A stretch of DNA of 64,000 nt from an uncultured Candidatus Saccharibacteria bacterium (GTDB lineage Bacteria; Patescibacteriota; Minisyncoccia; Phycocordibacterales; Phycocordibacteraceae). The stretch spans positions 15,280 through 79,279 of the forward strand of contig CAYMNZ010000001.1 in the NCBI GenBank assembly GCA_964391975.1. Direction: 5' to 3'. A program made the translations under genes and the position numbers. Positions within the stretch are counted from its first letter, which is position 1; each line of letters opens with the position of its first letter. A model generated the notes under the pieces. The model ran no database searches. It was given only the letters and a program-made list of their open reading frames with translations, and was not told the DNA's origin. This document shows positions 1,928 to 64,000 of this stretch, one piece after another.

Positions 1928-4075
<2,148 letters not shown>

Positions 4076-4086
4076 TCCTCCCCACA

Positions 4087-4117
4087 TAAAAAGAGCCGCA
4101 GATGCGGCTCTTTTTAT
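4087..4117. terminator. bidirectional Rho-independent terminator after fusA
   Basis: aaaaagagccgca-gat-gcggctctttttatt; a perfect hairpin flanked by an A-run and a T-run; the minus-strand gene ends at 4117. Confidence 0.8.
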
Positions 4118-4671
4118 TATTGTGCCTCTGCTGCTTTTTCTTCGAGGACTCGCGTGGACTCAGTTTGGAGTATGCGGGTAAGGGAGCTGTCGAATTCGTC
4201 TGATGTTATCCCGAAGGTCGAGCGGAACTCGGCGCGCAGTTCGCTTACATAGCGGTACCCGAGGGCGAATGACACCCGTACGTCAGAGGTAGCCGCGTGT
4301 TCGGTCGCTTTAGCGTGGTCAAAGAGCGCGTCGTAATGCTTTTTCACTATCGTGTCGATGATGGGGCTACGGTCATTGGGGTGGAGGCTATCGATGAGCT
4401 TGTGCAACTTGTTTGTCGCCTCACCTTGTCCGAGCTTCGCATTCTGTTCGGCGGCCAACAGGCGTTCAGGCTCGATGGGAGGTACTGAGGTAGCGTTCAC
4501 AATCTGGAGCGCCTCCTCGATTTTCATTCTTTTCTGCTCTGCGGGATTTTTCCCTCCTTGTTCCACTCTGGCGCTCATAGACGTTACTTGGTCAGTTACA
4601 GGGGATAGATACTCAGTGTACACCCACCGTCTTCCTTGGAGGGAGGACAAGATAGACTTTATCCCCGTCAT
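4117..4671 (-). CDS. hypothetical protein between fusA and tuf (opposite strand)
   Basis: 184-aa ORF, no family recognised; bounded by the fusA terminator and a ~210-nt divergent intergenic region upstream of tuf. Confidence 0.5.
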   Translation of the reverse strand: MTGIKSILSSLQGRRWVYTEYLSPVTDQVTSMSARVEQGGKNPAEQKRMKIEEALQIVNATSVPPIEPERLLAAEQNAKLGQGEATNKLHKLIDSLHPNDRSPIIDTIVKKHYDALFDHAKATEHAATSDVRVSFALGYRYVSELRAEFRSTFGITSDEFDSSLTRILQTESTRVLEEKAAEAQ

Positions 4672-4883
4672 CCACAGCCGGGCCTAAGGTTGACCCCTCC
4701 CGCCCCTTCCTGTAGGTTAGCTAGTAACGCGGTACGGCGCTCTTTGTAAACTTTCCCCATACGGGACAGGTCTATGAAGGCGTCGCGCGGGTATTCCGTC
4801 CGACGCCTTGGTTGTTATATGCCTCCCGGCCTGTAACAGGTGAGCGGTACTGATTAGAAACTTAGACGTAACGTAAACATTGT

Positions 4884-6080
<1,197 letters not shown>

Positions 6081-6096
6081 GCCAGGTATCACTCGT

Positions 6097-6453
6097 ATGG
6101 CCACCAAAGCTACCAAGACCCTGAAGAAAGAAGCGTCGGCTCCAACCGAGCCGAAGCTCCGCATCCGGGTCCGCGCCTACGAGCACAAGATTCTCGATCT
6201 CTCGGTAAAGCAGATTATGGACACCGCTAATCGCTTCGAAGCGAAAATCGTTGGCCCCGTTCCGCTCCCGACTGAGATAAAGCGATGGACCGTGAACCGC
6301 TCAACGTTCGTCCACAAGGACGCACGCGAGCAGTTCGAAATGCGCATCCACAAGCGACTCATCGATATCCTCTCCCCGAATCCGAAGGTCATCGAGGCTC
6401 TCACGAACCTCAACCTTCCATCCGGAGTGACGATTGACGTGAAGATGGTCTAA
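6097..6453 (+). CDS. rpsJ: 30S ribosomal protein S10 (with short N-terminal extension)
   Basis: 118 aa; IRVRAYEHKILD...RSTFVHKDAREQFE core; 16 nt after the tuf stop. Confidence 0.92.
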   Translation: MATKATKTLKKEASAPTEPKLRIRVRAYEHKILDLSVKQIMDTANRFEAKIVGPVPLPTEIKRWTVNRSTFVHKDAREQFEMRIHKRLIDILSPNPKVIEALTNLNLPSGVTIDVKMV

Positions 6454-6463
6454 CCAGGCCGCA

Positions 6464-6548: not shown

Positions 6549-6854
6549 ATGGTACGAGAAATTGGAGAAGGCATGCACGACGTCCGTCCACCTCAGAAAG
6601 CGGAGAGGCCGCGCGCGTGGCGCCCGAAGACAGGAGAGGCAATTACCATCACCAAGCGCGGCGGAGGCATCGTTGCACAAGGTCGCCTTGATGCAGACCT
6701 CAACATCATCGATGGCAGACCAGCAGCCTTCCGTATAGGGGGCGCCGCAGAGGACCTTCTCCCAAGCGTGGTGAGTTCAAACCAAGAGGGAAAGAAACTT
6801 GTTGTCGTGACCAAGAAAGGAATCTTTGAGATAAATAAGGAGACCGTTCACTAA
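6549..6854 (+). CDS. hypothetical protein (first of three genes inserted between rpsJ and rplC)
   Basis: 101-aa ORF followed by its own terminator; start may be the internal Met (MHDVRPP, near 6573). Confidence 0.45.
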   Translation: MVREIGEGMHDVRPPQKAERPRAWRPKTGEAITITKRGGGIVAQGRLDADLNIIDGRPAAFRIGGAAEDLLPSVVSSNQEGKKLVVVTKKGIFEINKETVH

Positions 6855-6855
6855 A

Positions 6856-6886
6856 CAACCGCCCCAGAGATGGGGCGGTTTTTGTT
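6856..6886 (+). terminator. Rho-independent terminator
   Basis: aaccgcccc-agaga-tggggcggtttttgtt. Confidence 0.75.
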
Positions 6887-6900
6887 ATACTCTCTTCATC

Positions 6901-7863
6901 ATGTTTGAGCGGAAAAACCCCATTCCCAAGCTGAGCGAGCAACGGAAGCGAGAAAAGGCAAAGTATCGAGATGAGGGGCTCAAAAGGAATGCGAAGGATA
7001 GGCGCGAGCAGCTGTTGTACTCAGATCCCCTTGGCTACCTCGGGGATTTACTCACCGGCAAACTTCCAACCGCTAAACAACTTGGTGAAGAGCTGAAAGC
7101 ACGCGATCAGGAGCGCCTTAAGAAACTAGTGCTAGAGGCGAAAGATGCGGCGCGCATTATGATGCTCGACGATGCGACGAGCTATCGCGCACACGAAATG
7201 GAACACGAGCTTCCGATGGTAGAGCTTGGGGCCTGGCTAGAGGGTGCCCTACGAGAGGGGAAGCTGCCAGATACTATCATTGCTGAGGACGTTACGGGTC
7301 GACCGCTGGCGCAGATATGTCGCACCCTCCTCACGCTCCTGAACAAGAGAATCCATCCCGATGCTGAAAATGTACCAGTTATCTCGTATGCGGTTGGACG
7401 ATATACGTCGCCCACGTTGGCGAAGCAACTCGCCCAGGGCGTGGCACAGAAGCTTGAAAAGCGAGGTGCGCGCAATGTGCTGGTCTGCACCGATGCTGTT
7501 GAGACTGGAAGCTCGATGGGCCCGCTGCTCACTGAAATTGGAGGACAATCGTACTCTCTCGCTCTTATGATAGATAGGATTACTCCACGCGCCGAGACGA
7601 TGATACTAGAACGTACGGAGAAGAATCCGGCCGTGCACATCTCGCTTCACCCAGATATGGATATTGGACAAGATTCAGTACTTATCATGCGTACGCTCGA
7701 GCGTCGGTATAAGAAAAACGCTGATTACAGAGACCTCCTCCTGGTGATAGAAGAGCTAGAGAACCGCCCGTACCGCCTCCAGGCAATTGAAGAGATTGCC
7801 AACGTGCTTTATGAAACCTTCCTCGAACGCCCTGGGGTGCAACAGCTCTTGCCCGCTCAGTAA
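6901..7863 (+). CDS. hypothetical protein with a C-terminal type I phosphoribosyltransferase-like PRPP-binding motif
   Basis: 320 aa; motif NVLVCTDAVETGSSMG resembles the PRTase signature (compare comF in this window: IVVDDVLTTGSTL); ~190-aa N-terminal extension of unknown type. Confidence 0.5.
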   Translation: MFERKNPIPKLSEQRKREKAKYRDEGLKRNAKDRREQLLYSDPLGYLGDLLTGKLPTAKQLGEELKARDQERLKKLVLEAKDAARIMMLDDATSYRAHEMEHELPMVELGAWLEGALREGKLPDTIIAEDVTGRPLAQICRTLLTLLNKRIHPDAENVPVISYAVGRYTSPTLAKQLAQGVAQKLEKRGARNVLVCTDAVETGSSMGPLLTEIGGQSYSLALMIDRITPRAETMILERTEKNPAVHISLHPDMDIGQDSVLIMRTLERRYKKNADYRDLLLVIEELENRPYRLQAIEEIANVLYETFLERPGVQQLLPAQ

Positions 7864-7878
7864 GGGTATACTTTTCGC

Positions 7879-8238
7879 ATGGCTTCTCCAGAAACTCCTA
7901 CGCACTCGGCTAACAAGGACATTCCAACTCTTTCGGTTGCGGCCATTGCTACTGAATACAAAGACATACTCGACCGCTACAATCGGTTCATTGATTCTCA
8001 GATGGTTGCGCTTGGGAAGCCAAAGGAGGTGGTAGAAGAACCCCCTCCGAGCGAACAGGCACGCGGAGAACTGCTCTGGAAGGAGCTTCTCCGGAGGGCG
8101 GTTGCCGGGAACGCCGAAGCCAAGCAGGCCATTATCGAGATTGATGTAGATGATGAGCTCAAAGAGCCTGATGGCTCTCTGAGCAAAGAAACGCTTCAGC
8201 GCCTTCTCGACTCCTCTGACACTCTGGCGGACGGCTAG
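7879..8238 (+). CDS. hypothetical acidic protein
   Basis: 119-aa ORF, co-directional, 15 nt after the preceding gene; no family recognised. Confidence 0.45.
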   Translation: MASPETPTHSANKDIPTLSVAAIATEYKDILDRYNRFIDSQMVALGKPKEVVEEPPPSEQARGELLWKELLRRAVAGNAEAKQAIIEIDVDDELKEPDGSLSKETLQRLLDSSDTLADG

Positions 8239-11218: not shown

Positions 11219-11250
11219 AAGAACCCTGCAGATGCAGGGTTCTTTCTATT
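11219..11250. terminator. bidirectional terminator between the PEK gene (+) and the DUF3298-like gene (-)
   Basis: agaaccctgca-gat-gcagggttctttctatt. Confidence 0.7.
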
Positions 11251-12049
11251 GGTACTTCGCTTTCAGTATTGCAGAGAGTTCGCTCTTCGGAAGGCGCACT
11301 TCCTGCATTCCGAGCGCCCACGGGCCTACCTGATACGGAGCGAAGATGATAACGAGCGCATTCCCCTCAAGGTAGAAGTTGAGGTAGTTGTCCTCGTCAG
11401 GGGTCGTGCCCGCGTCAATCATGTCCATATTGAGCTCTGACTCGCTTACGCCTGATACCTCTGCAATCTGTGTCACGAGCTTCGCGCGAGAGCTTGATGA
11501 GAGTCGTGCAAGGTAGTCGCTTCCAGGAACGAAGAGGTCTCCGAGCGTGAGTCCCTCACCGGTTTCCTTGTCGAAGGTGAAGGTGCGGTAGTAGGCGTTG
11601 GGGTGCGCGCCAAGGGTATCTGCGTACATGAGATAGACGTACGAGACAGTTGAATCGGAGGTGTGGAGCTCGTACTCCATACCGAAGGCATACTTTCTCT
11701 CACCACCAAGTCCCTGCACCTCAATGTCTTCCGCAGAAAGGGAAAGCAGCTGGTTCTCCTCCTTGAAGGACTCGACTGATATTTCCGCGAACTGCTTCAT
11801 GACCTCAACGGCGTGTGCATCGGCTCCAGCGCCTGCTGACGCCCTGAGTGGGGTCTGATTGGGGTATGCCGCCTCAATCTCCCAATACTGCTCGTTCTCC
11901 CTAATAACCCCTGCTTCCGCCTGTGGCTCTCCTACCTGAGGAGCAGGCACCTCAGGGGCAGGAGTGCTGGCCATATACCAGATAAGGGCGCCCAGGATGA
12001 TAATGATGAGGGCGATACCCCCGATAAGTAGCTTCTTGTTGGTGTCCAT
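11246..12049 (-). CDS. membrane-anchored DUF3298/DUF4163-like protein (RsiV-type C-terminal domain)
   Basis: 267 aa; N-terminal TM helix (LLIGGIALIIIILGALIWYM); C-terminus ...NYLNFYLEGNALVIIFAPYQVGPWALGMQEVRLP matches the DUF3298 motif. Confidence 0.6.
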   Translation of the reverse strand: MDTNKKLLIGGIALIIIILGALIWYMASTPAPEVPAPQVGEPQAEAGVIRENEQYWEIEAAYPNQTPLRASAGAGADAHAVEVMKQFAEISVESFKEENQLLSLSAEDIEVQGLGGERKYAFGMEYELHTSDSTVSYVYLMYADTLGAHPNAYYRTFTFDKETGEGLTLGDLFVPGSDYLARLSSSSRAKLVTQIAEVSGVSESELNMDMIDAGTTPDEDNYLNFYLEGNALVIIFAPYQVGPWALGMQEVRLPKSELSAILKAKYQ

Positions 12050-12851: not shown

Positions 12852-13562
12852 ATGACACACACCGTACATCCTTACGCACACCGCCTCGGTATCATCCGGG
12901 ACTGGAAGAGCCGTTGGTTTGCCCGTGGCAAGGCGCAGTACCGCGAGAACATCGCTATTGATGAGGGTATACGCCGTTTCCTCACCAAGCGTCTTAAGGG
13001 CATGCACGTCTCTGACATTGAGATTGAGCGCTCTGCAACCGAGACTCGCGTGCTTTTGCACACTGCCCGCCCAGGTCTCGTGATTGGCCGCTCTGGTGAG
13101 AACGCAACGAAGCTCCGCAAGGAACTCGCTGGCGTTATTGCTAAGGCATCTCCTAAGGATTCTGCAGCTCGCAAGTCGCTCGTGAAGCTCGACATCATGG
13201 AAGTTCGCCAGCCTGAGACCAACGCCGCTGTCGTCGGTCAGATGGTTGCTGAGGGACTTGAGAAGCGCCTTCCGTTCCGCCGCGTGTTGAAGAGCACTGT
13301 CGAGAAGGTTATGGCCGTTCGCGATGTCGTTGGAGTTCGCATCGTGATTTCTGGTCGCCTTGGTGGCGCAGATATGTCTCGCATCGAGCAGATCAAGCGC
13401 GGACGTATTCCTCTTCAGACCTTCCGTGCAAACATCGACTACGCACACACGGAGGCACACCTTCCGTATGGTCAGATTGGCATCAAGGTTTGGGTCTACC
13501 TCGGCGATACCTTCACTGAGCGTAACCGTGGTGCTCAGCCAGCTGCGACACCTCGCGCATAA
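12852..13562 (+). CDS. rpsC: 30S ribosomal protein S3
   Basis: 236 aa; KH-domain motif LVIGRSGENATKLRKEL. Confidence 0.95.
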   Translation: MTHTVHPYAHRLGIIRDWKSRWFARGKAQYRENIAIDEGIRRFLTKRLKGMHVSDIEIERSATETRVLLHTARPGLVIGRSGENATKLRKELAGVIAKASPKDSAARKSLVKLDIMEVRQPETNAAVVGQMVAEGLEKRLPFRRVLKSTVEKVMAVRDVVGVRIVISGRLGGADMSRIEQIKRGRIPLQTFRANIDYAHTEAHLPYGQIGIKVWVYLGDTFTERNRGAQPAATPRA

Positions 13563-40120: not shown

Positions 40121-40529
40121 TGTGGAGGTGGGGAGAATTGAACTCCCGTCCGAATCCGTCTTCGACAGCGACTCTACGACGCATAGTCCTGGTTAGAGAC
40201 TGGGGCAGGGTGCGAGGAACCAGAACGAAACCACTCCTGCCTGATCCCTTATTTAGAGAATACGTTCGGGAGGACGTACCTCGATTCCCTAGATGATTCC
40301 ACCCGGGCCGGACACTACGGAAGCTGAGCCGGTCGGATGTCGCTTAGGCGAGGCGTTTATGCAACGCGCGCGTAAGCGAACGCGAAATCGGACTTACTAA
40401 AGTAAGGCGAGATCACGCTTGCAAGAGTGTTCTTGGCAAGTTTGGGTGCCTGCGGGATTAAGGTGGTCAGCAGACTTCCACCGCGTCGCACGTCTGTCAA
40501 AGAGCAGACCGTCAAAACCGGTCACCCCC
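40121..40529 (-). ncRNA. ssrA: tmRNA (transfer-messenger RNA)
   Basis: Minus sense 5' GGGGGTGACCGGTTTTGACGG... (compare E. coli GGGGCUGAUUCUGGAUUCGACGGG) and 3' ...GGACGGGAGTTCAATTCTCCCCACCTCCA (T-arm plus acceptor). The acceptor pairs GGGGGTG/CACCTCC with G3-U70; CCA not encoded; directly downstream of smpB. Confidence 0.85.
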
Positions 40530-40571: not shown

Positions 40572-41024
40572 TCACTTGCGCCGCATCGCTCTATCCATAT
40601 CCCTCTTATCATCCTGACGTTTGAGGTCCTCTCTTCTGTCAGCCTTGCCTTTGCCTTTCACGATGGCAACCTGCACCTTTACGTATTTATTATTATACAA
40701 CGATAATGGCACTACTGTCAAGCCTTTCTTGGATTCAGCCTCAGCAAGCTGCGCAATCTCGCTCTTCTTAAGGAGGAGGCGGCGAGTGCGGTCGGGTTCG
40801 TAGGACTTGGCGGTGTTGCTCGCCTGGTAGGGAGGAATGGTCATGCCAACGAGGTATGCCTCACCCCCGCGCACAATGACGCGTGCGCCGTCGAGTGAGC
40901 CGTGCTTCCCACGAAGCGCTTTCACTTCGCTCCCAGATAGCTCAAGGCCAGCCGAGTAGGTCTCGACCAAGGTGTAGCGCATGCGCGCCTTCTTGTTCTC
41001 TATAAGTAGTGCATCTGGTTTCAT
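40572..41024 (-). CDS. smpB: SsrA-binding protein SmpB
   Basis: 150 aa; NKKARMRYTLVETYSAGLELSGSEVKALR is the SmpB signature. Confidence 0.92.
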   Translation of the reverse strand: MKPDALLIENKKARMRYTLVETYSAGLELSGSEVKALRGKHGSLDGARVIVRGGEAYLVGMTIPPYQASNTAKSYEPDRTRRLLLKKSEIAQLAEAESKKGLTVVPLSLYNNKYVKVQVAIVKGKGKADRREDLKRQDDKRDMDRAMRRK

Positions 41025-43335: not shown

Positions 43336-43412
43336 TGGTCCACCCGCTTGGACTCGAACCAAGGACCCTCGAGGTATAAGCTCGATGCTCTAACCAGCTG
43401 AGCTACGGGTGG
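43336..43412 (-). tRNA. tRNA-Ile with anticodon UAU (reads AUA); CCA encoded
   Basis: Minus sense CCACCCG-TA-GCTC-AGCTGGTTA-GAGC-A-TCGAG-CTTATAC-CTCGA-GGGTC-CTTGG-TTCGAGT-CCAAG-CGGGTGG-A-CCA. Full cloverleaf; anticodon loop CU-UAU-AC; discriminator A. Confidence 0.8.
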
Positions 43413-43451: not shown

Positions 43452-44321
43452 TCACTCCTCGTCAATACTAAGCGTGAGGATATTCTTTCCGTACTCACCT
43501 TCGTCACCGTGGGGAAGAAGCTCGAACTCCGCGGTTGTAGAAGCCCCTGTCTTGAGCTGTTGCCGGGCACGTATCTCGAGAACCTGTCCCTTCTTAATAT
43601 TCTCTCGAGTACTCAATACTTCTCCCATGAGACGTGAGGGCACTTCCTCATGTGTGACCGCTATGATGCGGAGACGCTTACCCTCGAGCCGTGCCTTGGT
43701 AGCGGCATCAAGGTACCTGTTGATGTTGGTTGCGTGTCGGATGAAGCGCTTTAGGCGTGCGTCGATGTCTTGGTAGTCTTCGGTGAATATGTCTGAGAGT
43801 TCGCGACCCAGTGCGGCAGCGATCTTTTCATGGGCTTGTTCAGGGGGAAGTTTCGTATGTAGTTGCGCTTCTGCACGGAACGCCCCGTCCGCGACTATCC
43901 AGTCTGCGCGGTCGCCTTGATCCTTGAAGTTTATCTGCCGAAGGTTGTTCACGATACGTAGGTTCTCCTCCCGAGGAAGCAGCATGCTTACACCTGCCGC
44001 CCGTAACTCTTCGTCGATGAGAAGGTCAGTCGACTGCGCGCGGAAGTTGGGACTCGTGAGGATGAGGACGACCTCGTTCTTCTTGTCTATCTTTGCGGCA
44101 AGCTGCTTTCCCGTATTTCGTATTATCTCGATACCCTCCTCGGTGAGGTCCAAATGTTCGACATCGAGCTTAAACCCTTCAGCAGTCGGGTCAAACACGA
44201 ACGAAGGGTCCTTAAGTTCCTTGTATACGGTTGGTCCGTGTCGAACGATGTCGATGATGGGAACTATTGGGTCTTGTTCTTTAGATTCTTGTTGGCGGAA
44301 CGGTTCGATTCGAAATGACAT
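43452..44321 (-). CDS. hypothetical protein, possibly histidine phosphatase superfamily (RHG motif)
   Basis: 289 aa; IDIVRHGPT near the N-terminus; otherwise unassigned. Confidence 0.35.
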   Translation of the reverse strand: MSFRIEPFRQQESKEQDPIVPIIDIVRHGPTVYKELKDPSFVFDPTAEGFKLDVEHLDLTEEGIEIIRNTGKQLAAKIDKKNEVVLILTSPNFRAQSTDLLIDEELRAAGVSMLLPREENLRIVNNLRQINFKDQGDRADWIVADGAFRAEAQLHTKLPPEQAHEKIAAALGRELSDIFTEDYQDIDARLKRFIRHATNINRYLDAATKARLEGKRLRIIAVTHEEVPSRLMGEVLSTRENIKKGQVLEIRARQQLKTGASTTAEFELLPHGDEGEYGKNILTLSIDEE

Positions 44322-50003: not shown

Positions 50004-52811
50004 ATGTCATCATTACGTACCTGGATTGCCGGAGTAGCCATTCTCCTTTTCGTCGCGGTTGCCGCACCACAGGCGGCCTACGCGAACGAATGCACTGATG
50101 GCTACCAGGAGCAGATAAGCGTGCTGCTCGATCGAATTGCCGACACGTCGTCTGGCCTTGCGCAGCAAATCATGCAGCTCCAGATTCAGCTCCTGCAACT
50201 CCAGATGCAGACGTGCGAGGGTGTCCCTGACACGGATGATGGGGACGTTGATCCGGATGCACCACTTGCGCTTACCGTTCCAAACGGTGGCGAGCGCTGG
50301 GAGGTAGGTTCCACCAATAGCATCACGTGGACCCCCTACGGCTACAATCCTGAAATCAATGTGTCGAGCGATGTTAAGGCCTATCTTGAGAAGAAGAAGG
50401 GTAATGGGTTTGTGAAGGTGGGAGAAATCGTTCCCTCAGGCAAGGCTTCGATACACTGGGACGGACAGATTAACGACTATAACGAATGGCCAAGTCCTGG
50501 TTCGTACTACATACGCATCGTGAACGAAAAGACGGGTGAGAGCGATCGAAGTGACAAGGCCTTCACGCTTACCGAACGTTCCGTTGATATCAAGGTCAAT
50601 GGGAGCGATGGGCCAGTGGACCTTGAGGACGGTGAGAAGATTGTGATTTCCTGGAAGACCAAAGGCTCGTTCACGTCCTGTTCCATCTCTTCGATAAGCA
50701 ATAACCCGAATCTCGATTATTCGACGGGTTTCGGCAGCGTCGGTAAGAGTGGCCGCGCTACCGCCTACTACACCGGTGACGGCTCACCAATCGGACTCAA
50801 CTGTGATCGCTCTGATGGTACGGGGCGTTACGACAGCGTGTACGTCAACTTCGAGGATGGCTCGACCTCCGCAATGATTAATGTGGATGTTCCCAATGGT
50901 GGCGAGGTCATCAATCCGGACCGCGAAATGCAGATTGCCTTCAATCACCGAGGTGTCGACCGCGTCTCCCTTGCACTCTATAAGAACGATAAGTGGAAGT
51001 ATTGGATTTATCGTGACCAGCCGATTGAGAAGGACCTCACTCCGTATTCGTGGGTTCCGAGCAGCGCTCTTCAGGGACTCGGCGAGGGCGACAACGCAGG
51101 CGCAATCTTCAAGATTTACGTGACCGGCCACAAGAGTGATGGCACAGGCTATGTGGATGATAAGAGCAACCAGGCGTTCAGCTTCGGTGCGACCAACACT
51201 CCGCCGGCCGCAAACAACACGCGTATAAACGTCGACGTCGAAGGGGAGCGACCACTCATCGTCGGAAATACTTATCGGGTTTCCTGGCGAGACGGCGGTG
51301 GGCACTTTGGCTTAAGCGGTGTGCCAATAGACGAGGTCATGAGGAAATTCCCGAATGCGGTCGGGCACATCCACGCGAGGAACCAGGATATGTCGACCGG
51401 TATCGGCCAGACGGTCGCGAAGAAGCTTACGAAAGCCCAGATTCTTTCAGGAAGGACGGACTGGACCATCCTGGACTACAGCAATGACGGACGCGAGATG
51501 CCTACGGGTGGCTACCGCATTGAGATGGATATCAGCCTCCCGAGCGGAGTAGTGCTTGCAAACGGCACGGGCGGACTCTTCAATCTTGAAGGTGAAGATG
51601 CAGAGGAGGGAGCGGAGATTGTCGACATCGACCTTGATGTAGAAGTCCTTAATCAGAGCGCCGCGCCCCTTCAAGTAATAGCGACTGCGGAAATCGAAGC
51701 TGAAGGTCCTGACTGTCCTCTTGAGTTCCCGACCCCCACTCTTACGTGGGGAGACGGCACGACCGGCTCAATCATGGCGCAGACGGTGTCGACCGCTGGG
51801 AACTCTTCCAGCTGGTGCCGACAGACGCTCACGATGGCGTACGACCATACGTACAGCGCCGCAGGCTCGTACACTCTGGTCTTCAAAGCAGGTGGGCTTA
51901 CGAAGTCAGTCACGATACAGGTAGCCGGGACTGGGACTTCCTCCGGTACCGTCGACAACCAGACGTACGCTACTCCGTATCCGACCCTTACCGGTACCGC
52001 ACGCGGCACTTCGGCGGTGGGACTCAACATCGTCAAAGGGGACAAGATATACGGAAGCGGGAAAATCCTAGTCTCAAGCGGACGATGGTCACATGTGGTG
52101 AGTGAGAGTATTCCTGCAGGTACCTATGACGTCGTCCTCTACAACTACGGCACGAATGCCAGAATCGCCTCAGGAACAATCACCATACAGTTGAGAAGCG
52201 AAGGGACCACGAGCTGTAGCGCGTCGGTAACCCCGAGCTCTATAACCCGAGGAAGTGCTGCGGTGCTCAAGTGGAGCAGCAAGAACGCGTCATACGTCTT
52301 GCTTGATGGTGAGAAGGCAGAGGCGTCCGACAGCAAGTCGGTGAGTCCGACTGCCACGAAGACTTACTATTTCACCGTGCTCGGTATGAGTGGAGGGAAG
52401 AGTGCGTGCTCGACGACACTTACGGTCACCGAGCCTGAGACACCGGGCCCAGCCGCTACGCCGACGGTTACGTTCTCAGGTCCGCGGATCGCCACCGCAG
52501 AAAGCGGAGCCATGCTCTCTTGGAGCACCACGAACGCAAAGCGTTGTGTGCTCTCAAGCAGCGACGGCAACGAGTGGAATGTGCCCGTCAACAATGACAA
52601 CTACATGGTGTATCCGTACGAGACAACGACGTACAGACTCTGGTGCGCAAACGACACCGGGGGAGGCAAGGATGGCCCGTCTGCGGAGAAGAGCATTACG
52701 GTCCGTATCTTCGAACGTCGTGACGGCCGGCTCGAGGCGTCCGCACTCATGTCGGTCCAGAGTCAGCTCGATGCGATTCTTAAGGGAATGAAGGAACTCT
52801 TCGGAAACTAA
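50004..52811 (+). CDS. large secreted multi-domain protein (935 aa)
   Basis: Signal peptide; coiled coil QIMQLQIQLLQLQMQ; several beta-rich domains; two C-terminal copies of the two-Cys domain (SCSASVTPSSITRGSAAVLKWSSKNAS... and ...AMLSWSTTNAKRCVL...). Confidence 0.6.
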   Translation: MSSLRTWIAGVAILLFVAVAAPQAAYANECTDGYQEQISVLLDRIADTSSGLAQQIMQLQIQLLQLQMQTCEGVPDTDDGDVDPDAPLALTVPNGGERWEVGSTNSITWTPYGYNPEINVSSDVKAYLEKKKGNGFVKVGEIVPSGKASIHWDGQINDYNEWPSPGSYYIRIVNEKTGESDRSDKAFTLTERSVDIKVNGSDGPVDLEDGEKIVISWKTKGSFTSCSISSISNNPNLDYSTGFGSVGKSGRATAYYTGDGSPIGLNCDRSDGTGRYDSVYVNFEDGSTSAMINVDVPNGGEVINPDREMQIAFNHRGVDRVSLALYKNDKWKYWIYRDQPIEKDLTPYSWVPSSALQGLGEGDNAGAIFKIYVTGHKSDGTGYVDDKSNQAFSFGATNTPPAANNTRINVDVEGERPLIVGNTYRVSWRDGGGHFGLSGVPIDEVMRKFPNAVGHIHARNQDMSTGIGQTVAKKLTKAQILSGRTDWTILDYSNDGREMPTGGYRIEMDISLPSGVVLANGTGGLFNLEGEDAEEGAEIVDIDLDVEVLNQSAAPLQVIATAEIEAEGPDCPLEFPTPTLTWGDGTTGSIMAQTVSTAGNSSSWCRQTLTMAYDHTYSAAGSYTLVFKAGGLTKSVTIQVAGTGTSSGTVDNQTYATPYPTLTGTARGTSAVGLNIVKGDKIYGSGKILVSSGRWSHVVSESIPAGTYDVVLYNYGTNARIASGTITIQLRSEGTTSCSASVTPSSITRGSAAVLKWSSKNASYVLLDGEKAEASDSKSVSPTATKTYYFTVLGMSGGKSACSTTLTVTEPETPGPAATPTVTFSGPRIATAESGAMLSWSTTNAKRCVLSSSDGNEWNVPVNNDNYMVYPYETTTYRLWCANDTGGGKDGPSAEKSITVRIFERRDGRLEASALMSVQSQLDAILKGMKELFGN

Positions 52812-59487: not shown

Positions 59488-60138
59488 CTAATGCGCCAAT
59501 GCGACGGCAATGACCCGGTCGGCGCCAGCGCCAGTGAGAGTGCGGACGGCTTCACGAAGCGTGCTCCCCGTCGTTAGTACATCGTCCACTACTATATAAA
59601 GGTATGTGGAGTCTGGGGTGCCGGAACGGAAGGCACTGGCGATATTTTCTTGGCGTTTCTCTCTGGTAAGCCTGGTCTGCGGCGTGGTGTCGCGTGTGCG
59701 TGTAAGCAGGTTCGTTTCCATGCGGGCGCCGAGTTGCTTGGCGGTCTTCCGAAGCACTTGCTCTACTTGGTTGTATCCGCGCTCCCGTTTTCTTTTACCA
59801 GAAAGCGGAAGTGGAACGAGGGCGATGTTCCTTTGTTCAAGTTCAGTCTCCTCACTCATGCGCTCGAGAAGATAGTCGGAAAGTACGGAAGCGAGAAGCT
59901 CGGAAGCGGTGGTGTTCCCGTGGTACTTGGTTTCAATGATGAGCGCGTGAACTACTGGCTCGCGATAGGGGAGAAGTGCAGTAACACCACCCTCGTTTGT
60001 TACCGGGTTCACGAGGGCTGCCAGTGTTTCTGGCTGTATCGACCGCACGATACGCTCGGTTTCTCTCGGTGGAAACACAAAATCAAGGAGGCCGCGCATG
60101 TCGCCATGATACACTTTGCGAATGGGCATCTTCGACAT
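59488..60138 (-). CDS. comF: ComF family phosphoribosyltransferase-domain protein
   Basis: LLDFVFPP N-terminal motif and C-terminal PRTase motif IVVDDVLTTGSTLREA; start uncertain (ORF extends to 60201). Confidence 0.7.
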   Translation of the reverse strand: MSKMPIRKVYHGDMRGLLDFVFPPRETERIVRSIQPETLAALVNPVTNEGGVTALLPYREPVVHALIIETKYHGNTTASELLASVLSDYLLERMSEETELEQRNIALVPLPLSGKRKRERGYNQVEQVLRKTAKQLGARMETNLLTRTRDTTPQTRLTREKRQENIASAFRSGTPDSTYLYIVVDDVLTTGSTLREAVRTLTGAGADRVIAVALAH

Positions 60139-61204
60139 GTTCGTACCAAAAAAGAAGACGAAGAGCGTCATTGGCATTGACATGGGCTCCTCCTCTCTCA
60201 AGGTCGTGCAGTTGCGGCGTGAGGGCGGGACGGCGGTTCTTGAAAACTACGGCGAGCTCGCGCTTGGTCCCTATGCTGGCTCTGAAATTGGTACTGCAAC
60301 CAACCTTCCTGCCGAGAAGCTTGCCGAGGCGCTCACTGACCTCATTCGCGAGGTAGGCATCACCACCACTGACGCAGGCATCTCCATTCCATTCTCCCGT
60401 TCGCTCCTTACGTTGGTGGAGCTTCCTCGTCGGGATAATGCAGAAGAACAAAAAACCATCATCTCGCTTGAAGCGAGGAAGTACATTCCGGTACCGGTGT
60501 CAGAAGTGCAGCTCGATTGGTTCGTCGTCCCCGAGACCTTGCCGGAAGGGAACGAGCTGCCAAACAAGGTAAAGGTATTGCTCGTGGCGGTGCACAACGA
60601 TGAACTTACTCTTTTGCAAAGTGTGATTACCGCAGCGAAGCTCCAAGCAACCTTTTATGAGATTGAGATTTTCAGTACTATTCGTTCCGTTGTTGATGAG
60701 CCGGTGAAGCCAGTGTTGGTACTTGATATCGGTGCATCTGCCGCCAAGGTGTACGTGGTGGAGCGCGGCGTGGTCGCACTTTCGCACAACATCCGTGCAG
60801 GTGGACAGGACATCACGCGCTCCATTGCGACGGCAAATAATCTTGCCATCGCTGCTGCTGAAGCACAGAAGAAAGAATTCGGCTTTGCCACAGGAGCCAG
60901 CTACGACCGCGCAACGGTGGAAACCATCTTCTCGCGCATCTTTGAAGAAGCGAAGCGTGTGATGGTGCAGTATGAGACCGCTCACAACAAAGCTGTCTCA
61001 GGGCTTGTGCTTACCGGTGGGGGAGCAGTGACCAAGGAACTGGCCGCCTACGCCACCTCCTTCTTCTCGGTTGATGTGCGCATTGCCGATCCGTTCGCAA
61101 AGACCGCCGCTCCTGCATTCATGCGCCCCGTACTCCAGGAGATAGGACCAGAGTTTGCTGTTGCGGTAGGTCTTGCGCTCCGTAAGCTTGAAAACCTCGA
61201 CTAA
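60116..61204 (+). CDS. pilM: type IV pilus assembly protein PilM
   Basis: Actin-like ATPase fold; SVIGIDMGSSSLKVVQL N-terminus; start may be the ATG at 60137 to avoid overlap with divergent comF. Confidence 0.8.
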   Translation: MRMGIFDMFVPKKKTKSVIGIDMGSSSLKVVQLRREGGTAVLENYGELALGPYAGSEIGTATNLPAEKLAEALTDLIREVGITTTDAGISIPFSRSLLTLVELPRRDNAEEQKTIISLEARKYIPVPVSEVQLDWFVVPETLPEGNELPNKVKVLLVAVHNDELTLLQSVITAAKLQATFYEIEIFSTIRSVVDEPVKPVLVLDIGASAAKVYVVERGVVALSHNIRAGGQDITRSIATANNLAIAAAEAQKKEFGFATGASYDRATVETIFSRIFEEAKRVMVQYETAHNKAVSGLVLTGGGAVTKELAAYATSFFSVDVRIADPFAKTAAPAFMRPVLQEIGPEFAVAVGLALRKLENLD

Positions 61205-61266
61205 TTGTTTCCACACGTGTGCGTAAGGGATACATAGGAGGCCCGTAGGACTGGTATACTGCTTGC

Positions 61267-61962
61267 ATGGCTCTTTCTCCGACCATACCGACTTCCTTCG
61301 TACCTAAGCAGCCGGTACTGCGCACGGTTCCCAACCGCCCGAAATCAAGCGGTGCGAACTTGTTCATGGTCGTCTCCTTCTTTCTCCTTGGTGCAGCGGT
61401 GATAGGTTCGATTGCCGTGTTTGGGTACCAGCAGTATCTGAAGGGAGTGATTGCAAGCAAGGAAGCTGATCTCAAGGCAGCTGAGGAGCGCATCAATTTC
61501 TCAACGGTGGAGGAATTCATTCGTGTGCGCAACCGCTTTACGGCAAGTCAGGAGTTGCTCGACCAGCACGTTGCACTTTCGCAGTTTTTGACCGTGCTTG
61601 AGACCACCACGCTCGCAAGCGTTCGGTTCAGCACGATGGGCTTCACGCTTGAAGATGACGGCACCCCTACCGTGGAAATGGCTGGTACCGCCCGCAGCTT
61701 CAACGCGCTTGCTGCACAATCAAACGCCTTTGGTACCGATACGCGCATCAAGAGCGCCATCTTCTCTGGCATCAAAGTGAATCCAAATAACTCAGTTTCG
61801 TTCACACTCACCGCTAACCTTTCTCCATCCCTGGTTACCATGATGGATCCTGCTGACTTGCCAACACAGCAGCGCTTTGTACCACCAGTGGCAACGTCGA
61901 CAGCAACGACCACCACTCCTACTTCCGCAACGACGACCGCTACTACCACGCCACGCCTATGA
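61267..61962 (+). CDS. PilN-like pilus assembly protein
   Basis: 231 aa; single TM then coiled coil; gene order after pilM; Thr-rich tail. Confidence 0.55.
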   Translation: MALSPTIPTSFVPKQPVLRTVPNRPKSSGANLFMVVSFFLLGAAVIGSIAVFGYQQYLKGVIASKEADLKAAEERINFSTVEEFIRVRNRFTASQELLDQHVALSQFLTVLETTTLASVRFSTMGFTLEDDGTPTVEMAGTARSFNALAAQSNAFGTDTRIKSAIFSGIKVNPNNSVSFTLTANLSPSLVTMMDPADLPTQQRFVPPVATSTATTTTPTSATTTATTTPRL

Positions 61963-62516
61963 CCCGCTTCCTTCCCATCGTCGGCATTCTCATCGCACTC
62001 GGTCTTTTCGTAGGCTACATCCATCCGACGTACACGGGCGACGTTGCTGCCGCACGCGCACAGGTGAAGAGCTACGATAATGCGCTTGCTGCTGCTCGTG
62101 CGTTTGCTGAAAAGGAAGGGGAGCTGCTTTCTGAGAAGAGCGCGCTTCCTGAGGAACAGCTTGCGCGCCTCCAGACCTTCCTGCCTGATGGCGTGGACAA
62201 CGTGCAGCTCATCCTCGACCTTGATGCGCTTGCTACTCGAAGTGGTCTCAAGCTCTCGAACTTCGATGTTGCCGCTCCGGACCTGAACCAGGAATCCGAA
62301 CTTACCGGCAATCGTCTTCCGCTCGTGAGCGAGAAGCCAGCAGAGTCGCTTACGCTCTCAGTTTCTGCGACGGGAACCTATGGTGCCTTCCGTGCCTTCC
62401 TTGATGGCGCTGAGCACTCCTTGCGCCTGCTTGACCTCATCGGGCTTGAGATTCGTGACTCTGCCACGGGGGTCTACACATACAGCATGGTCTTCCGCAT
62501 CTATTGGCTCCAGTAA
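61959..62516 (+). CDS. PilO-like pilus assembly protein
   Basis: 185 aa; TM helix plus coiled coil; ATGA overlap with the upstream gene. Confidence 0.55.
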   Translation: MTRFLPIVGILIALGLFVGYIHPTYTGDVAAARAQVKSYDNALAAARAFAEKEGELLSEKSALPEEQLARLQTFLPDGVDNVQLILDLDALATRSGLKLSNFDVAAPDLNQESELTGNRLPLVSEKPAESLTLSVSATGTYGAFRAFLDGAEHSLRLLDLIGLEIRDSATGVYTYSMVFRIYWLQ

Positions 62517-62523
62517 TACTTCT

Positions 62524-62829
62524 ATGAACTCACGCACTAACGTACTCCTTATCGTTCTCGGACTCATCGTCCTGGGTGCTGCTGCGTACATGCTGCTTGC
62601 GAAGGGGGAGCAAGCACCTGCTATTTCCGAGACTGACGGAGGGAACGAGACTGAGAGCGCCTTCCTAGCCCTCACTGCTGAAATTGGTGCCATCACCTTT
62701 GATACCGATGTTTTTGCGGACCCACGTTTCGCCACCCTGCGCGATATTCGTACTGTGATTCTTCCTGAGACGGCAGGACGCACCGACCCCTTTGCGCCGC
62801 TGCCGGGACTTGCTCCCGTACAGCCGTAG
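62524..62829 (+). CDS. small membrane-anchored protein in the pilus cluster (PilP-like position)
   Basis: 101 aa from MNSRTNVLLIVLGLIVLGAAAYML...; trimmed from 62380. Confidence 0.4.
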   Translation: MNSRTNVLLIVLGLIVLGAAAYMLLAKGEQAPAISETDGGNETESAFLALTAEIGAITFDTDVFADPRFATLRDIRTVILPETAGRTDPFAPLPGLAPVQP

Positions 62830-62832
62830 CGC

Positions 62833-64000
62833 ATGACGAACCTTCTCTCGCTGCTTCAGGACAAGGGCATACTGAAGCCCGGTGATGCCGTGGCGATTGA
62901 ACGCGAGGCGAAAGACTCAGGGGTTTCCCTTGAAGCCGCACTCATTGGTAGGGGTATTGCAATTGAGGACTTGCTCGCACTCAAAAGCGAGCGCTACGGC
63001 ATTCCCTCACGCGTGCTTCCAGCACAGACGCCTATTGAGCAGTCGGTACTGCAATACATTCCTGAGGACTCGGCTCGTCACTACCGTGCGGTCCCGCTGT
63101 TGGTGCGCGAAGGCGCGCTCGAAGTCGGCATCGTCGACCCAGACAACATTGAGGCTCTTGATGCACTCCAGTTTATCGCTGGCAGAATTGGCATGCCGTA
63201 CAAGCTGTTTATTATTTCAGAAGCAGATTTTGGGCGCGTGATTGACGAGTACAAGAACCTGACAGGGGAGGTGGGTGCTGCGCTCACTGAGTACGAGGGC
63301 TCTGAAGTTCCCGTTGAGCTTGATGCGGCGCCTGTCTCTTCACGAAAGGATGTTGAAGACACCATCAAGGCAGATGCACCGGTGACCAAGATTGTCGCGA
63401 CCGTATTGCGCTACGCGGTAGAAGGCGGTGCCTCTGATATTCACATTGAGCCTACTCCTGAGAGCACGCGGGTGCGTTTTCGCATGGATGGAGATTTGCA
63501 TACTTCGCTTGAACTTCCGCAGAAAGTGCACCCGGCAGTGGTGGCGCGCATCAAGATTCTTTCGCAGATGCGTCTTGATGAGAAGCGAAAGCCGCAGGAC
63601 GGGCGCTTCTCGACGTCGGTTGAAGGCCGTCGCATCGACTTCCGCGTGTCGACGTTCCCCACACAGTATGGCGAGAAGGTGGTGATGCGTATTCTCGACC
63701 GCTCGAAGGCCACTGCAACTATGGAGACGGTTGGGTTTAATGCTGAGCAGCTTGTGGTGGTGCGCGAAATGATTAAAGCTCCGTACGGCATCATCCTTAT
63801 GTCGGGTCCTACCGGTTCCGGTAAATCGACCACACTCTTCGCCATGCTCTCTGAGCTTGATCGCGAGGCCGCCAACGTGGTCTCGATTGAGGACCCGGTG
63901 GAGTACGAGATTTCTGGCGTGGCGCAGTCGCAGGTGCACCCAGAAATTGGCTACACCTTCGCTTCAGGACTTCGTTCCATCCTTCGTCAGGACCCGGACA
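62833..64000 (+). CDS. pilB: type IV pilus assembly ATPase PilB/GspE (3' end outside window)
   Basis: Not in the ORF track because it runs off the window. Frame from the ATG at 62833 reads MTNLLSLLQDKG...; Walker A SGPTGSGKSTTLFAML; VEDPVEY. Confidence 0.85.
   Translation, partial: MTNLLSLLQDKGILKPGDAVAIEREAKDSGVSLEAALIGRGIAIEDLLALKSERYGIPSRVLPAQTPIEQSVLQYIPEDSARHYRAVPLLVREGALEVGIVDPDNIEALDALQFIAGRIGMPYKLFIISEADFGRVIDEYKNLTGEVGAALTEYEGSEVPVELDAAPVSSRKDVEDTIKADAPVTKIVATVLRYAVEGGASDIHIEPTPESTRVRFRMDGDLHTSLELPQKVHPAVVARIKILSQMRLDEKRKPQDGRFSTSVEGRRIDFRVSTFPTQYGEKVVMRILDRSKATATMETVGFNAEQLVVVREMIKAPYGIILMSGPTGSGKSTTLFAMLSELDREAANVVSIEDPVEYEISGVAQSQVHPEIGYTFASGLRSILRQDPD

Follow-up and report, generated by a model that had tools for sequence, protein, structure and literature searches.

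How does a bacterium read the AUA codon when its genome directly encodes a tRNA-Ile with a UAU anticodon? Reviews hold that almost all bacteria read AUA via lysidine, and TilS is regarded as bacteria-specific, essential, a candidate antibiotic target and a phylogenomic marker. In the canonical system, tRNA-Ile2(CAU) is modified, either with lysidine via TilS or, in some bacteria, with ava2C (PMC11938285). We analyzed a 64-kb stretch of DNA, referred to throughout as the window, that carries a tRNA-Ile(UAU) gene. Comparison of this locus with its relatives suggests that in this organism AUA is decoded by this tRNA alone, independently of TilS, a reading to which we assign a probability of about 0.8.

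The window has a GC content of ~54% throughout and encodes EF-G, EF-Tu, a ribosomal-protein cluster, SecY, an RNase J-like protein, smpB-ssrA, ftsH, recG, purD, purA and type IV pilus genes. ARAGORN detects three RNA genes, namely a tmRNA, tRNA-Ile(tat) and tRNA-Ser(gct). The features around the tRNA-Ile gene are as follows:

43336..43412, minus strand: tRNA-Ile(UAU) gene, 77 nt including the encoded CCA (ARAGORN; Rfam RF00005; covariation in 32 orthologues)
43376..43378, minus strand: anticodon UAU (ATA on the plus strand), read from the sequence, within the loop C32-U33-U34-A35-U36-A37, C38
40981..42972, plus strand: ftsH, exact start uncertain, the ORF overlapping smpB (Pfam Peptidase_M41, AAA and FtsH_ext)
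40572..41024, minus strand: smpB, divergent from ftsH (NCBIfam SmpB, 157 bits)
40122..40529, minus strand: tmRNA (ssrA), downstream of smpB (ARAGORN; Rfam RF00023, 95.1 bits)
43452..44321, minus strand: 289-aa ORF, on the same strand as the tRNA and 40 bp upstream of it, with no Pfam or NCBIfam family

The tRNA gene lies 364-367 bp beyond the stop codon of ftsH, on the other strand, and encodes the RNA CCACCCGUAGCUCAGCUGGUUAGAGCAUCGAGCUUAUACCUCGAGGGUCCUUGGUUCGAGUCCAAGCGGGUGGACCA, with the CCA at 43336-43338. The original prediction had placed a tRNA-Ile with a UAU anticodon at 43336-43412, and ARAGORN calls tRNA-Ile(tat) at identical coordinates; the placement needs correcting only as to strand, since the gene lies on the minus strand. 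The clean cloverleaf and the loop CU-UAU-AC that had been described are likewise borne out. Rfam RF00005 matches 43339-43412 (minus strand) with 68.4 bits (gathering score 29, E 8.6e-13), all stem positions are canonical with zero non-canonical pairs, and the loop reads CUUAUAC (C32-U33-U34-A35-U36-A37-C38), with C1-G72, A73 and A37 present. The single-sequence MFE fold does not give a cloverleaf (z -1.8); we set it aside because we prefer the evidence from covariation, described below.

A scan around the tRNA recognized neither a promoter nor a terminator, and no sigma-70-like promoter was seen between the 289-aa ORF and the tRNA. It is possible that the two are co-transcribed. The GTDB genome scan returned no relatives of the 289-aa ORF, and since it is not conserved in related genomes, it is probably unrelated to tRNA function.

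Several other features of the neighborhood deserve mention. The tag peptide that ARAGORN reports for the tmRNA (40122-40529, minus strand), ASPKRHPTGSASVVSGPGGII followed by a stop, is probably mis-framed; the frame starting from GCC at 40437 gives AKNTLASVISPYFSKSDFAFAYARVA, again followed by a stop, which agrees with the ...SPYF...DFAFAY... tags of three related loci (L007, L029 and L019). The S10 ribosomal-protein operon is broken up at window positions 6549-8238 and 11246-12049: three ORFs of 93, 320 and 119 aa with zero Pfam matches separate rpsJ from rplC, and rplB is separated from rpsS by a DUF3298 gene of opposite orientation. A 935-aa ORF at 50004-52811 (plus strand) is kept on all same-species contigs and has no Pfam or NCBIfam match. 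These contigs supplied ~16 kb of extra flank beyond the window edges. They include JGI 3300020186 Ga0163153_10000238 (98.8 kb) and Logan SRR6448204-10, metagenome contigs that match purD and other window proteins exactly, among them EF-G and a 185-aa ORF; these matches mark the organism as an uncultured one. Genes for PrgI, TraC-like and TraG P-loop proteins, which resemble T4SS or conjugation genes, lie ~5-10 kb upstream of the window start (L207:1-5149, contig Ga0163153_10000238), and a type IV pilus cluster at the 3′ end (60116-64000, continuing in L208) encodes PilM, two T2SSE ATPases, T2SSF, a prepilin peptidase and pilins.

How widespread is this gene? We collected relatives by scanning for FtsH in one genome per GTDB species and compared 80 FtsH loci. 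The best matches to the window FtsH, at 83% (partial), 77%, 75% and 74% identity, come from genomes labeled "Patescibacteria group" and from Candidatus Kaiserbacteria MAGs; Paceibacteria, Taylor-, Nomura- and Jorgensenbacteria and Minisyncoccia follow, and the NCBI lineage of the matches is Patescibacteria group > Parcubacteria group. Judged by these protein matches, the window is a piece of a Patescibacteria (CPR) chromosome of Parcubacteria/Kaiserbacteria-like affinity. ARAGORN finds tRNA-Ile(tat) in 32 of the 80 loci, always downstream of ftsH, at distances of +8 to +4,944 bp. In a 33rd, L028, the sequence breaks off 56 bp beyond ftsH and includes only the initial 24 nt of this tRNA. On a neighbor-joining tree of FtsH, the 33 UAU loci and the window form one clade with zero other members, and the nearest neighbors of this clade (L032, L036, L037 and L042, all Moranbacteria-like) all carry tilS.

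Fitted to the cloverleaf, the 32 UAU tRNAs (31 of them distinct) are paired in 99.4% of stem cells, compared with 69.7% after shuffling, and 17 of the 21 stem pairs have changed on both sides. The covariation score is 0.755, versus 0.18 for shuffled alignments (0 of 500 shuffles reach the score) and 0.08-0.16 for slid controls. All 32 GTDB orthologues share the loop CUUAUA (C32-U33-U34-A35-U36-A37) and A73 without variation, and the tRNA hallmarks U8, A14, G18-G19, G53-T54-T55-C56, A58 and U33 in a 7-nt loop are likewise invariant across the 32-sequence alignment. Position 38 is C in 26 of the 32, A in five, all deep-branching, and U in one. The first pair is C1-G72 in 13 and G1-C72 in 19. The original prediction had called C1-G72 uncommon, and it is: only 2 of 71 other elongator tRNAs at the same loci start with C, which marks C1-G72 as a trait peculiar to this tRNA within a sub-clade. 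When metagenomes were scanned with the pattern of the UAU tRNA, with either C or T allowed at position 34, it was found on at least 120 contigs; T34, never C34, is present in 120 of 120 copies among the matches listed.

The tRNA-Ile(UAU) gene is real and under strong purifying selection, with compensatory changes in its stems. It is not a pseudogene, and the isotype and anticodon first proposed for it stand. Could it nonetheless be non-functional or foreign, that is, a chance cloverleaf, a decayed copy or a tRNA recently brought in by a phage or mobile element? Synteny in 33 species-level genomes that form one clade, together with abundant compensatory substitutions, speaks against all of these. 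Phages often bear tRNAs for rare codons; however, the UAU tRNA pattern had 0 matches in 2.9 million viral contigs and the GC content near the tRNA equals that of the rest of the window. The T4SS-like genes noted above, some 50 kb from the tRNA, could hint at mobility. That no promoter was recognized would fit a silent gene. We regard this family of explanations as having almost no chance of being right, and pseudogene, chance and phage origins are rejected on the conservation and covariation data.

The comparison also yielded observations on other genes at these loci. In six deep-branching members of the UAU clade (L033, L043, L051, L055, L059 and L086), a tRNA-Val (TAC or GAC) follows soon after the UAU tRNA, at a gap of about 10-120 bp, or about 630 bp in L059, and sometimes within a larger tRNA cluster. 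A tRNA-Val(GAC) is also found downstream of ftsH in the tilS-bearing L032, L036, L037 and L042, and in L042 a weak tRNA-like match (13130-13200, 29.5 bits) that ARAGORN does not call lies after it. ARAGORN reports a tRNA-Ser with the anticodon ACT (A34) beside tRNA-Ser(GCT) at L015:14175-14262, L020:14871-14960 and five metagenome loci. In L009 (9534-12188) and L013 (3568-6390), the helicase of RecG is interrupted by a PD-(D/E)XK nuclease domain (PF13366), and L040 has an intein in its GyrA (2973-6455).

If the UAU tRNA reads AUA, what has become of tilS? In three loci outside the UAU clade (L037, L049 and L052), the ORF immediately preceding ftsH encodes TilS, with the PF01171 PP-loop domain and, in L037, the PF09179 substrate-binding domain. 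A TilS profile built from these three proteins and run on the 80 loci and the window places tilS adjacent to ftsH in 11 of the 80 (L032, L036, L037, L039, L042, L049, L052, L063, L069, L070 and L085), and none of the 11 has tRNA(tat). CAT tRNAs with a classic ileX-type anticodon arm (...GCGACUCAUAAUCGC...) occur near tilS, at +79 bp after ftsH in L039, +1,055 in L049 and +2,049 in L037, and just upstream of tilS in L085. The order in some sister CPR lineages is thus tilS-ftsH-tRNA-Ile2(CAU), whereas in the window clade there is no tilS, ftsH is followed by tRNA-Ile(UAU), and smpB-ssrA lies upstream of ftsH, with smpB in the position that tilS holds in tilS-bearing CPR relatives.

No TilS is found in the 64-kb window, the ~16-kb flanks or the 33 orthologous GTDB loci, and there is neither TilS nor a CAT tRNA in 759 kb around the metagenome copies (120 among the matches listed, with 86 ftsH genes). 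No tRNA-Ile2(CAU) is present in the window or at any UAU locus. Together with the tilS and CAU genes of sister lineages, these results give indirect support to the link with tilS loss that the original prediction had drawn, and the window's lineage appears to have dropped the lysidine (TilS) system. At 35 of the 80 FtsH loci, both tilS and tRNA(tat) are missing from the surroundings of ftsH, so that tilS is not always linked to ftsH. A database search with a Moranbacteria TilS is of little use for judging absence elsewhere, since all 120 matches listed are Moranbacteria-like.

One alternative is that the UAU tRNA works as a redundant decoder, with tilS and tRNA-Ile2(CAU) kept elsewhere in the genome so that two tRNAs read AUA. 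Bacteria with both systems exist (PMC3575796), only about 80 kb of the window organism's genome is covered, and tilS need not sit beside ftsH. However, the UAU gene occupies the slot of tRNA-Ile2(CAU), tilS is missing from its usual place in 33 of 33 loci, and the metagenome loci are equally devoid of TilS and CAT tRNAs.

Counts from complete genomes also bear on this alternative. For 95 complete Patescibacteria genomes, Table S2 of Nakagawa et al. (2026; PMC13011429) gives the number of tRNAs for each amino acid, though not their anticodons. ARAGORN "Met" counts comprise every CAT tRNA, and tRNAscan-SE "Ile" counts exclude Ile2(CAT). Paired as (tRNAscan Ile, ARAGORN CAT), the 95 genomes fall into the combinations (1,3) in 48, (2,2) in 33, (2,3) in five, (2,1) in four, (3,2) in three and (1,4) in two. 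Hence two or more Ile tRNAs accompany at most two CAT tRNAs in 40/95 and a single Ile tRNA accompanies three or more CAT tRNAs in 50/95, and a single Ile tRNA with at most two CAT tRNAs occurs in 0/95 (Fisher p 1.2e-21). The complete Paceibacteria (n = 20) comprise 14 genomes with (2,2), five with (1,3) and one with (2,3). All Microgenomatia (12/12) and Dojkabacteria (7/7) combine two or more Ile tRNAs with two CAT tRNAs or fewer, and the standard set is found in 33/36 Saccharimonadia and 7/7 JAEDAM01.

Because UAU is the anticodon found at the FtsH loci, we infer that the extra Ile tRNA in these complete genomes is UAU; Nakagawa et al. (2026) make no comment on it. If a genome has just two CAT tRNAs, TilS is left without a substrate, which for 14 of 20 complete Paceibacteria argues against a redundant decoder. 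On the other side, five of the 95 genomes have an extra Ile tRNA together with three CAT tRNAs. All told, we consider it unlikely that the window organism retains a second AUA decoder. The five genomes with both sets comprise two ABY1, one Paceibacteria (GCA_022530585.1) and two Saccharimonadia, and could possibly represent transitional states with both AUA decoders.

How far does UAU decoding extend? We lean, by a little, towards the view that AUA is decoded by UAU in the ftsH-linked Paceibacteria clade and also in Microgenomatia, Dojkabacteria and parts of ABY1, amounting to ~40% of complete Patescibacteria. A UAU anticodon for Ile had been described as rare in the original prediction; this is true of cultured bacteria but not of this radiation, where it is clade-wide and tRNA counts suggest that ~40% of complete genomes are without a third CAT tRNA.

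Does AUA still mean isoleucine? The codon, to whose usage attention had been drawn at the outset, is in normal use in the window (8.6 per 1000 codons and 15% of Ile codons). The FtsH genes of the 32 UAU genomes contain 347 AUA codons; at these positions, the residue in orthologues of non-UAU genomes is I in 40.3%, V in 17.2%, L in 16.0% and M in 3.2%. The same comparison at AUU gives I 42.7, V 18.8, L 16.9 and M 3.9%, so that AUA is indistinguishable from AUU/AUC; AUG positions, with M at 35%, are unlike AUA. In FtsH, UAU genomes use AUA about twice as often as the others do (16.3 versus 8.3 per 1000, raw values uncorrected for GC). By this comparison of aligned codons, AUA is still isoleucine in the UAU genomes.

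The tRNA itself can be read against the known identity rules. E. coli tRNA-Ile identity is said to have been traced by Nureki and colleagues in 1994 to A73, A37 (as t6A), A38, C4-G69, U12-A23 and C29-G41. Although these are rules for E. coli IleRS1 and may not transfer, the UAU tRNAs have A73 in 32/32, A37 in 32/32, U12-A23 in 31/32 and C4-G69 in 24/32 (U-A in the other 8). They depart from the same rules, with the same caveat, at position 38, which is C rather than A in 26/32, and at 29-41, which is G-C in the window.

These data weigh on another explanation, in which the tRNA has changed identity and carries a different amino acid from Ile, such as Met, which is the case in many mitochondria, and AUA has been reassigned. 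UGA and CGA/CGG are recoded in other CPR lineages (Absconditabacteria; PMC8629427), and a bacterial tRNA-Ile does not usually have C1-G72 or C38. Yet AUA in FtsH matches Ile, Val and Leu in the manner of AUU/AUC, and A73, A37, U12-A23 and C4-G69 of the E. coli identity set are present. We find a reassigned AUA very hard to credit.

We return to the reading in which tRNA-Ile(UAU) alone decodes AUA. The genomically encoded U34-A35-U36 anticodon would read AUA directly, with the molecule serving as the minor tRNA-Ile. It would do the same job as canonical tRNA-Ile2(CAU), reading AUA as Ile, and it sits in the same slot after ftsH in which the canonical gene is found in L037, L039 and L049. The canonical tRNA has C34, the TilS target; the window tRNA and every orthologue have T34, and position 38 is mostly C, not A. 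As U34 is encoded in the gene, lysidine is neither possible nor needed.

How might such a system have arisen? tRNA-Ile(UAU) would have replaced the pair of tRNA-Ile2(CAU) and TilS in the slot downstream of ftsH, and the simplest route would be a change of C34 to U34 in place. TilS would then have been left without a substrate, and tilS would have been lost. With a covariance model of the 32 UAU tRNAs, CAT (Ile2-like) and Val(UAC) tRNAs score equally, at about 79-83 bits, and outside the anticodon the identity of the UAU tRNA to every tRNA class is about 0.6; sequence therefore cannot pick out tRNA-Ile2, tRNA-Ile1 or tRNA-Val as the ancestor. Descent from tRNA-Ile2 is more likely, and what favors it is only synteny.

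Such a tRNA would have to be charged with Ile and kept from reading AUG. The IleRS of the lineage would need to recognize U34, for which it should have a basic residue where the E. coli enzyme has W905 or else be a type-2 IleRS. No ileS lies within ~16 kb beyond the window edges, and a Pfam screen of 36 large ORFs, taken from the window and from the 200 GTDB and metagenome loci, turns up no IleRS. Misreading of AUG through a U34-G pair could be limited by the ribosome, by competition from tRNA-Met, by tuning of the tRNA body or by a novel modification of U34. The 32-38 pair has a role in decoding accuracy, and for this reason the change from A38, present in tRNA-Ile2 and in deep-branching UAU tRNAs, to C38 in the crown group is a candidate tuning element. 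The C1-G72 flip may be another, although both suggestions are speculative.

How does the proposed system compare with those already described? The closest parallel is Mycoplasma mobile, for which experiments show an unmodified UAU tRNA, an IleRS with Arg865 and a ribosome that discriminates against misreading (Taniguchi et al., 2013; PMC3575796). In the same study, W905R/K in E. coli IleRS mimics Arg865, UAU tRNA is poorly charged by an E. coli-type IleRS, and an origin from the lysidine system via tilS loss is proposed (PMC3575796). M. mobile uses, and the window clade would use, an encoded UAU as AUA decoder in place of tRNA-Ile2(CAU) and TilS, with AUA meaning Ile. However, M. mobile is a single species in a tilS-positive genus, whereas the UAU anticodon of the window is fixed across a large CPR clade. 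The window tRNA has C38, plus C1-G72 in its sub-clade.

Other bacteria have arrived at related arrangements. Bifidobacterium and Neorickettsia have tRNA-Ile(UAU), a type-2 (eukaryote-type) IleRS and no tilS (PMC3575796); they are independent tilS-less lineages with a TAT gene, and their solution is tied to the type-2 enzyme. Lactobacillus casei and L. plantarum, Cyanothece PCC 7424 and Ferrimonas balearica have a TAT gene together with tilS (PMC3575796). They share a bacterial tRNA-Ile(TAT) with the window clade and could represent a transitional state, but they keep tilS and tRNA-Ile2(CAU), whereas in the window clade tilS is missing from its conserved position. TAT tRNA-Ile genes have been catalogued in 19 bacterial species (PMC4013482). 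In Bacillus subtilis, a tilS deletion is suppressed by one mutation, G34U in tRNA-Ile1, which yields UAU and makes TilS dispensable (PMC3919564; cited in PMC3575796). That suppressor was obtained in the laboratory from tRNA-Ile1(GAU), whereas the window gene is natural, ancient and, by synteny, more likely derived from tRNA-Ile2. The eukaryotic cytosolic tRNA-Ile(UAU) has its anticodon modified to pseudouridine-A-pseudouridine (PMC8007984). The window gene shares with it a UAU anticodon dedicated to AUA. The eukaryotic gene is often intron-containing and its pseudouridines 34 and 36 are Pus1-dependent; the window gene is without an intron.

What, then, is new? A bacterial TAT tRNA-Ile, with or without tilS, is a kind of gene already known. 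The apparent novelty lies in the scale, which takes in a whole CPR clade and probably several classes, and in the clean syntenic contrast with tilS-bearing sisters. In a search of openly accessible full texts, no paper connected Patescibacteria, CPR or Parcubacteria with lysidine, TilS or tRNA-Ile(UAU), and an mSystems paper on tRNA introns mentions neither UAU nor TilS.

If our reading is correct, this would be by far the largest natural clade to decode AUA by a U34 tRNA, and one apparently undescribed. Were whole CPR classes to use a plain UAU tRNA, they would form a very large exception to the textbook lysidine rule. There would be practical consequences as well, since completeness estimates and marker sets based on tilS would misjudge such genomes, and tRNA annotation in these lineages should reckon with Ile(TAT) and with no more than two CAT tRNAs. 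The finding would also imply lineage-specific solutions to AUG misreading, such as an adapted IleRS or ribosome, tuning by C38 or C1-G72, or a novel U34 modification. Finally, the clade would offer dozens of natural, independently evolving cases in which U34 reads AUA without misreading AUG. With sister lineages that retain tilS-ftsH-tRNA-Ile2(CAU), and with A38 to C38 and C1-G72 as tuning candidates, it would provide a comparison accessible to mutagenesis.
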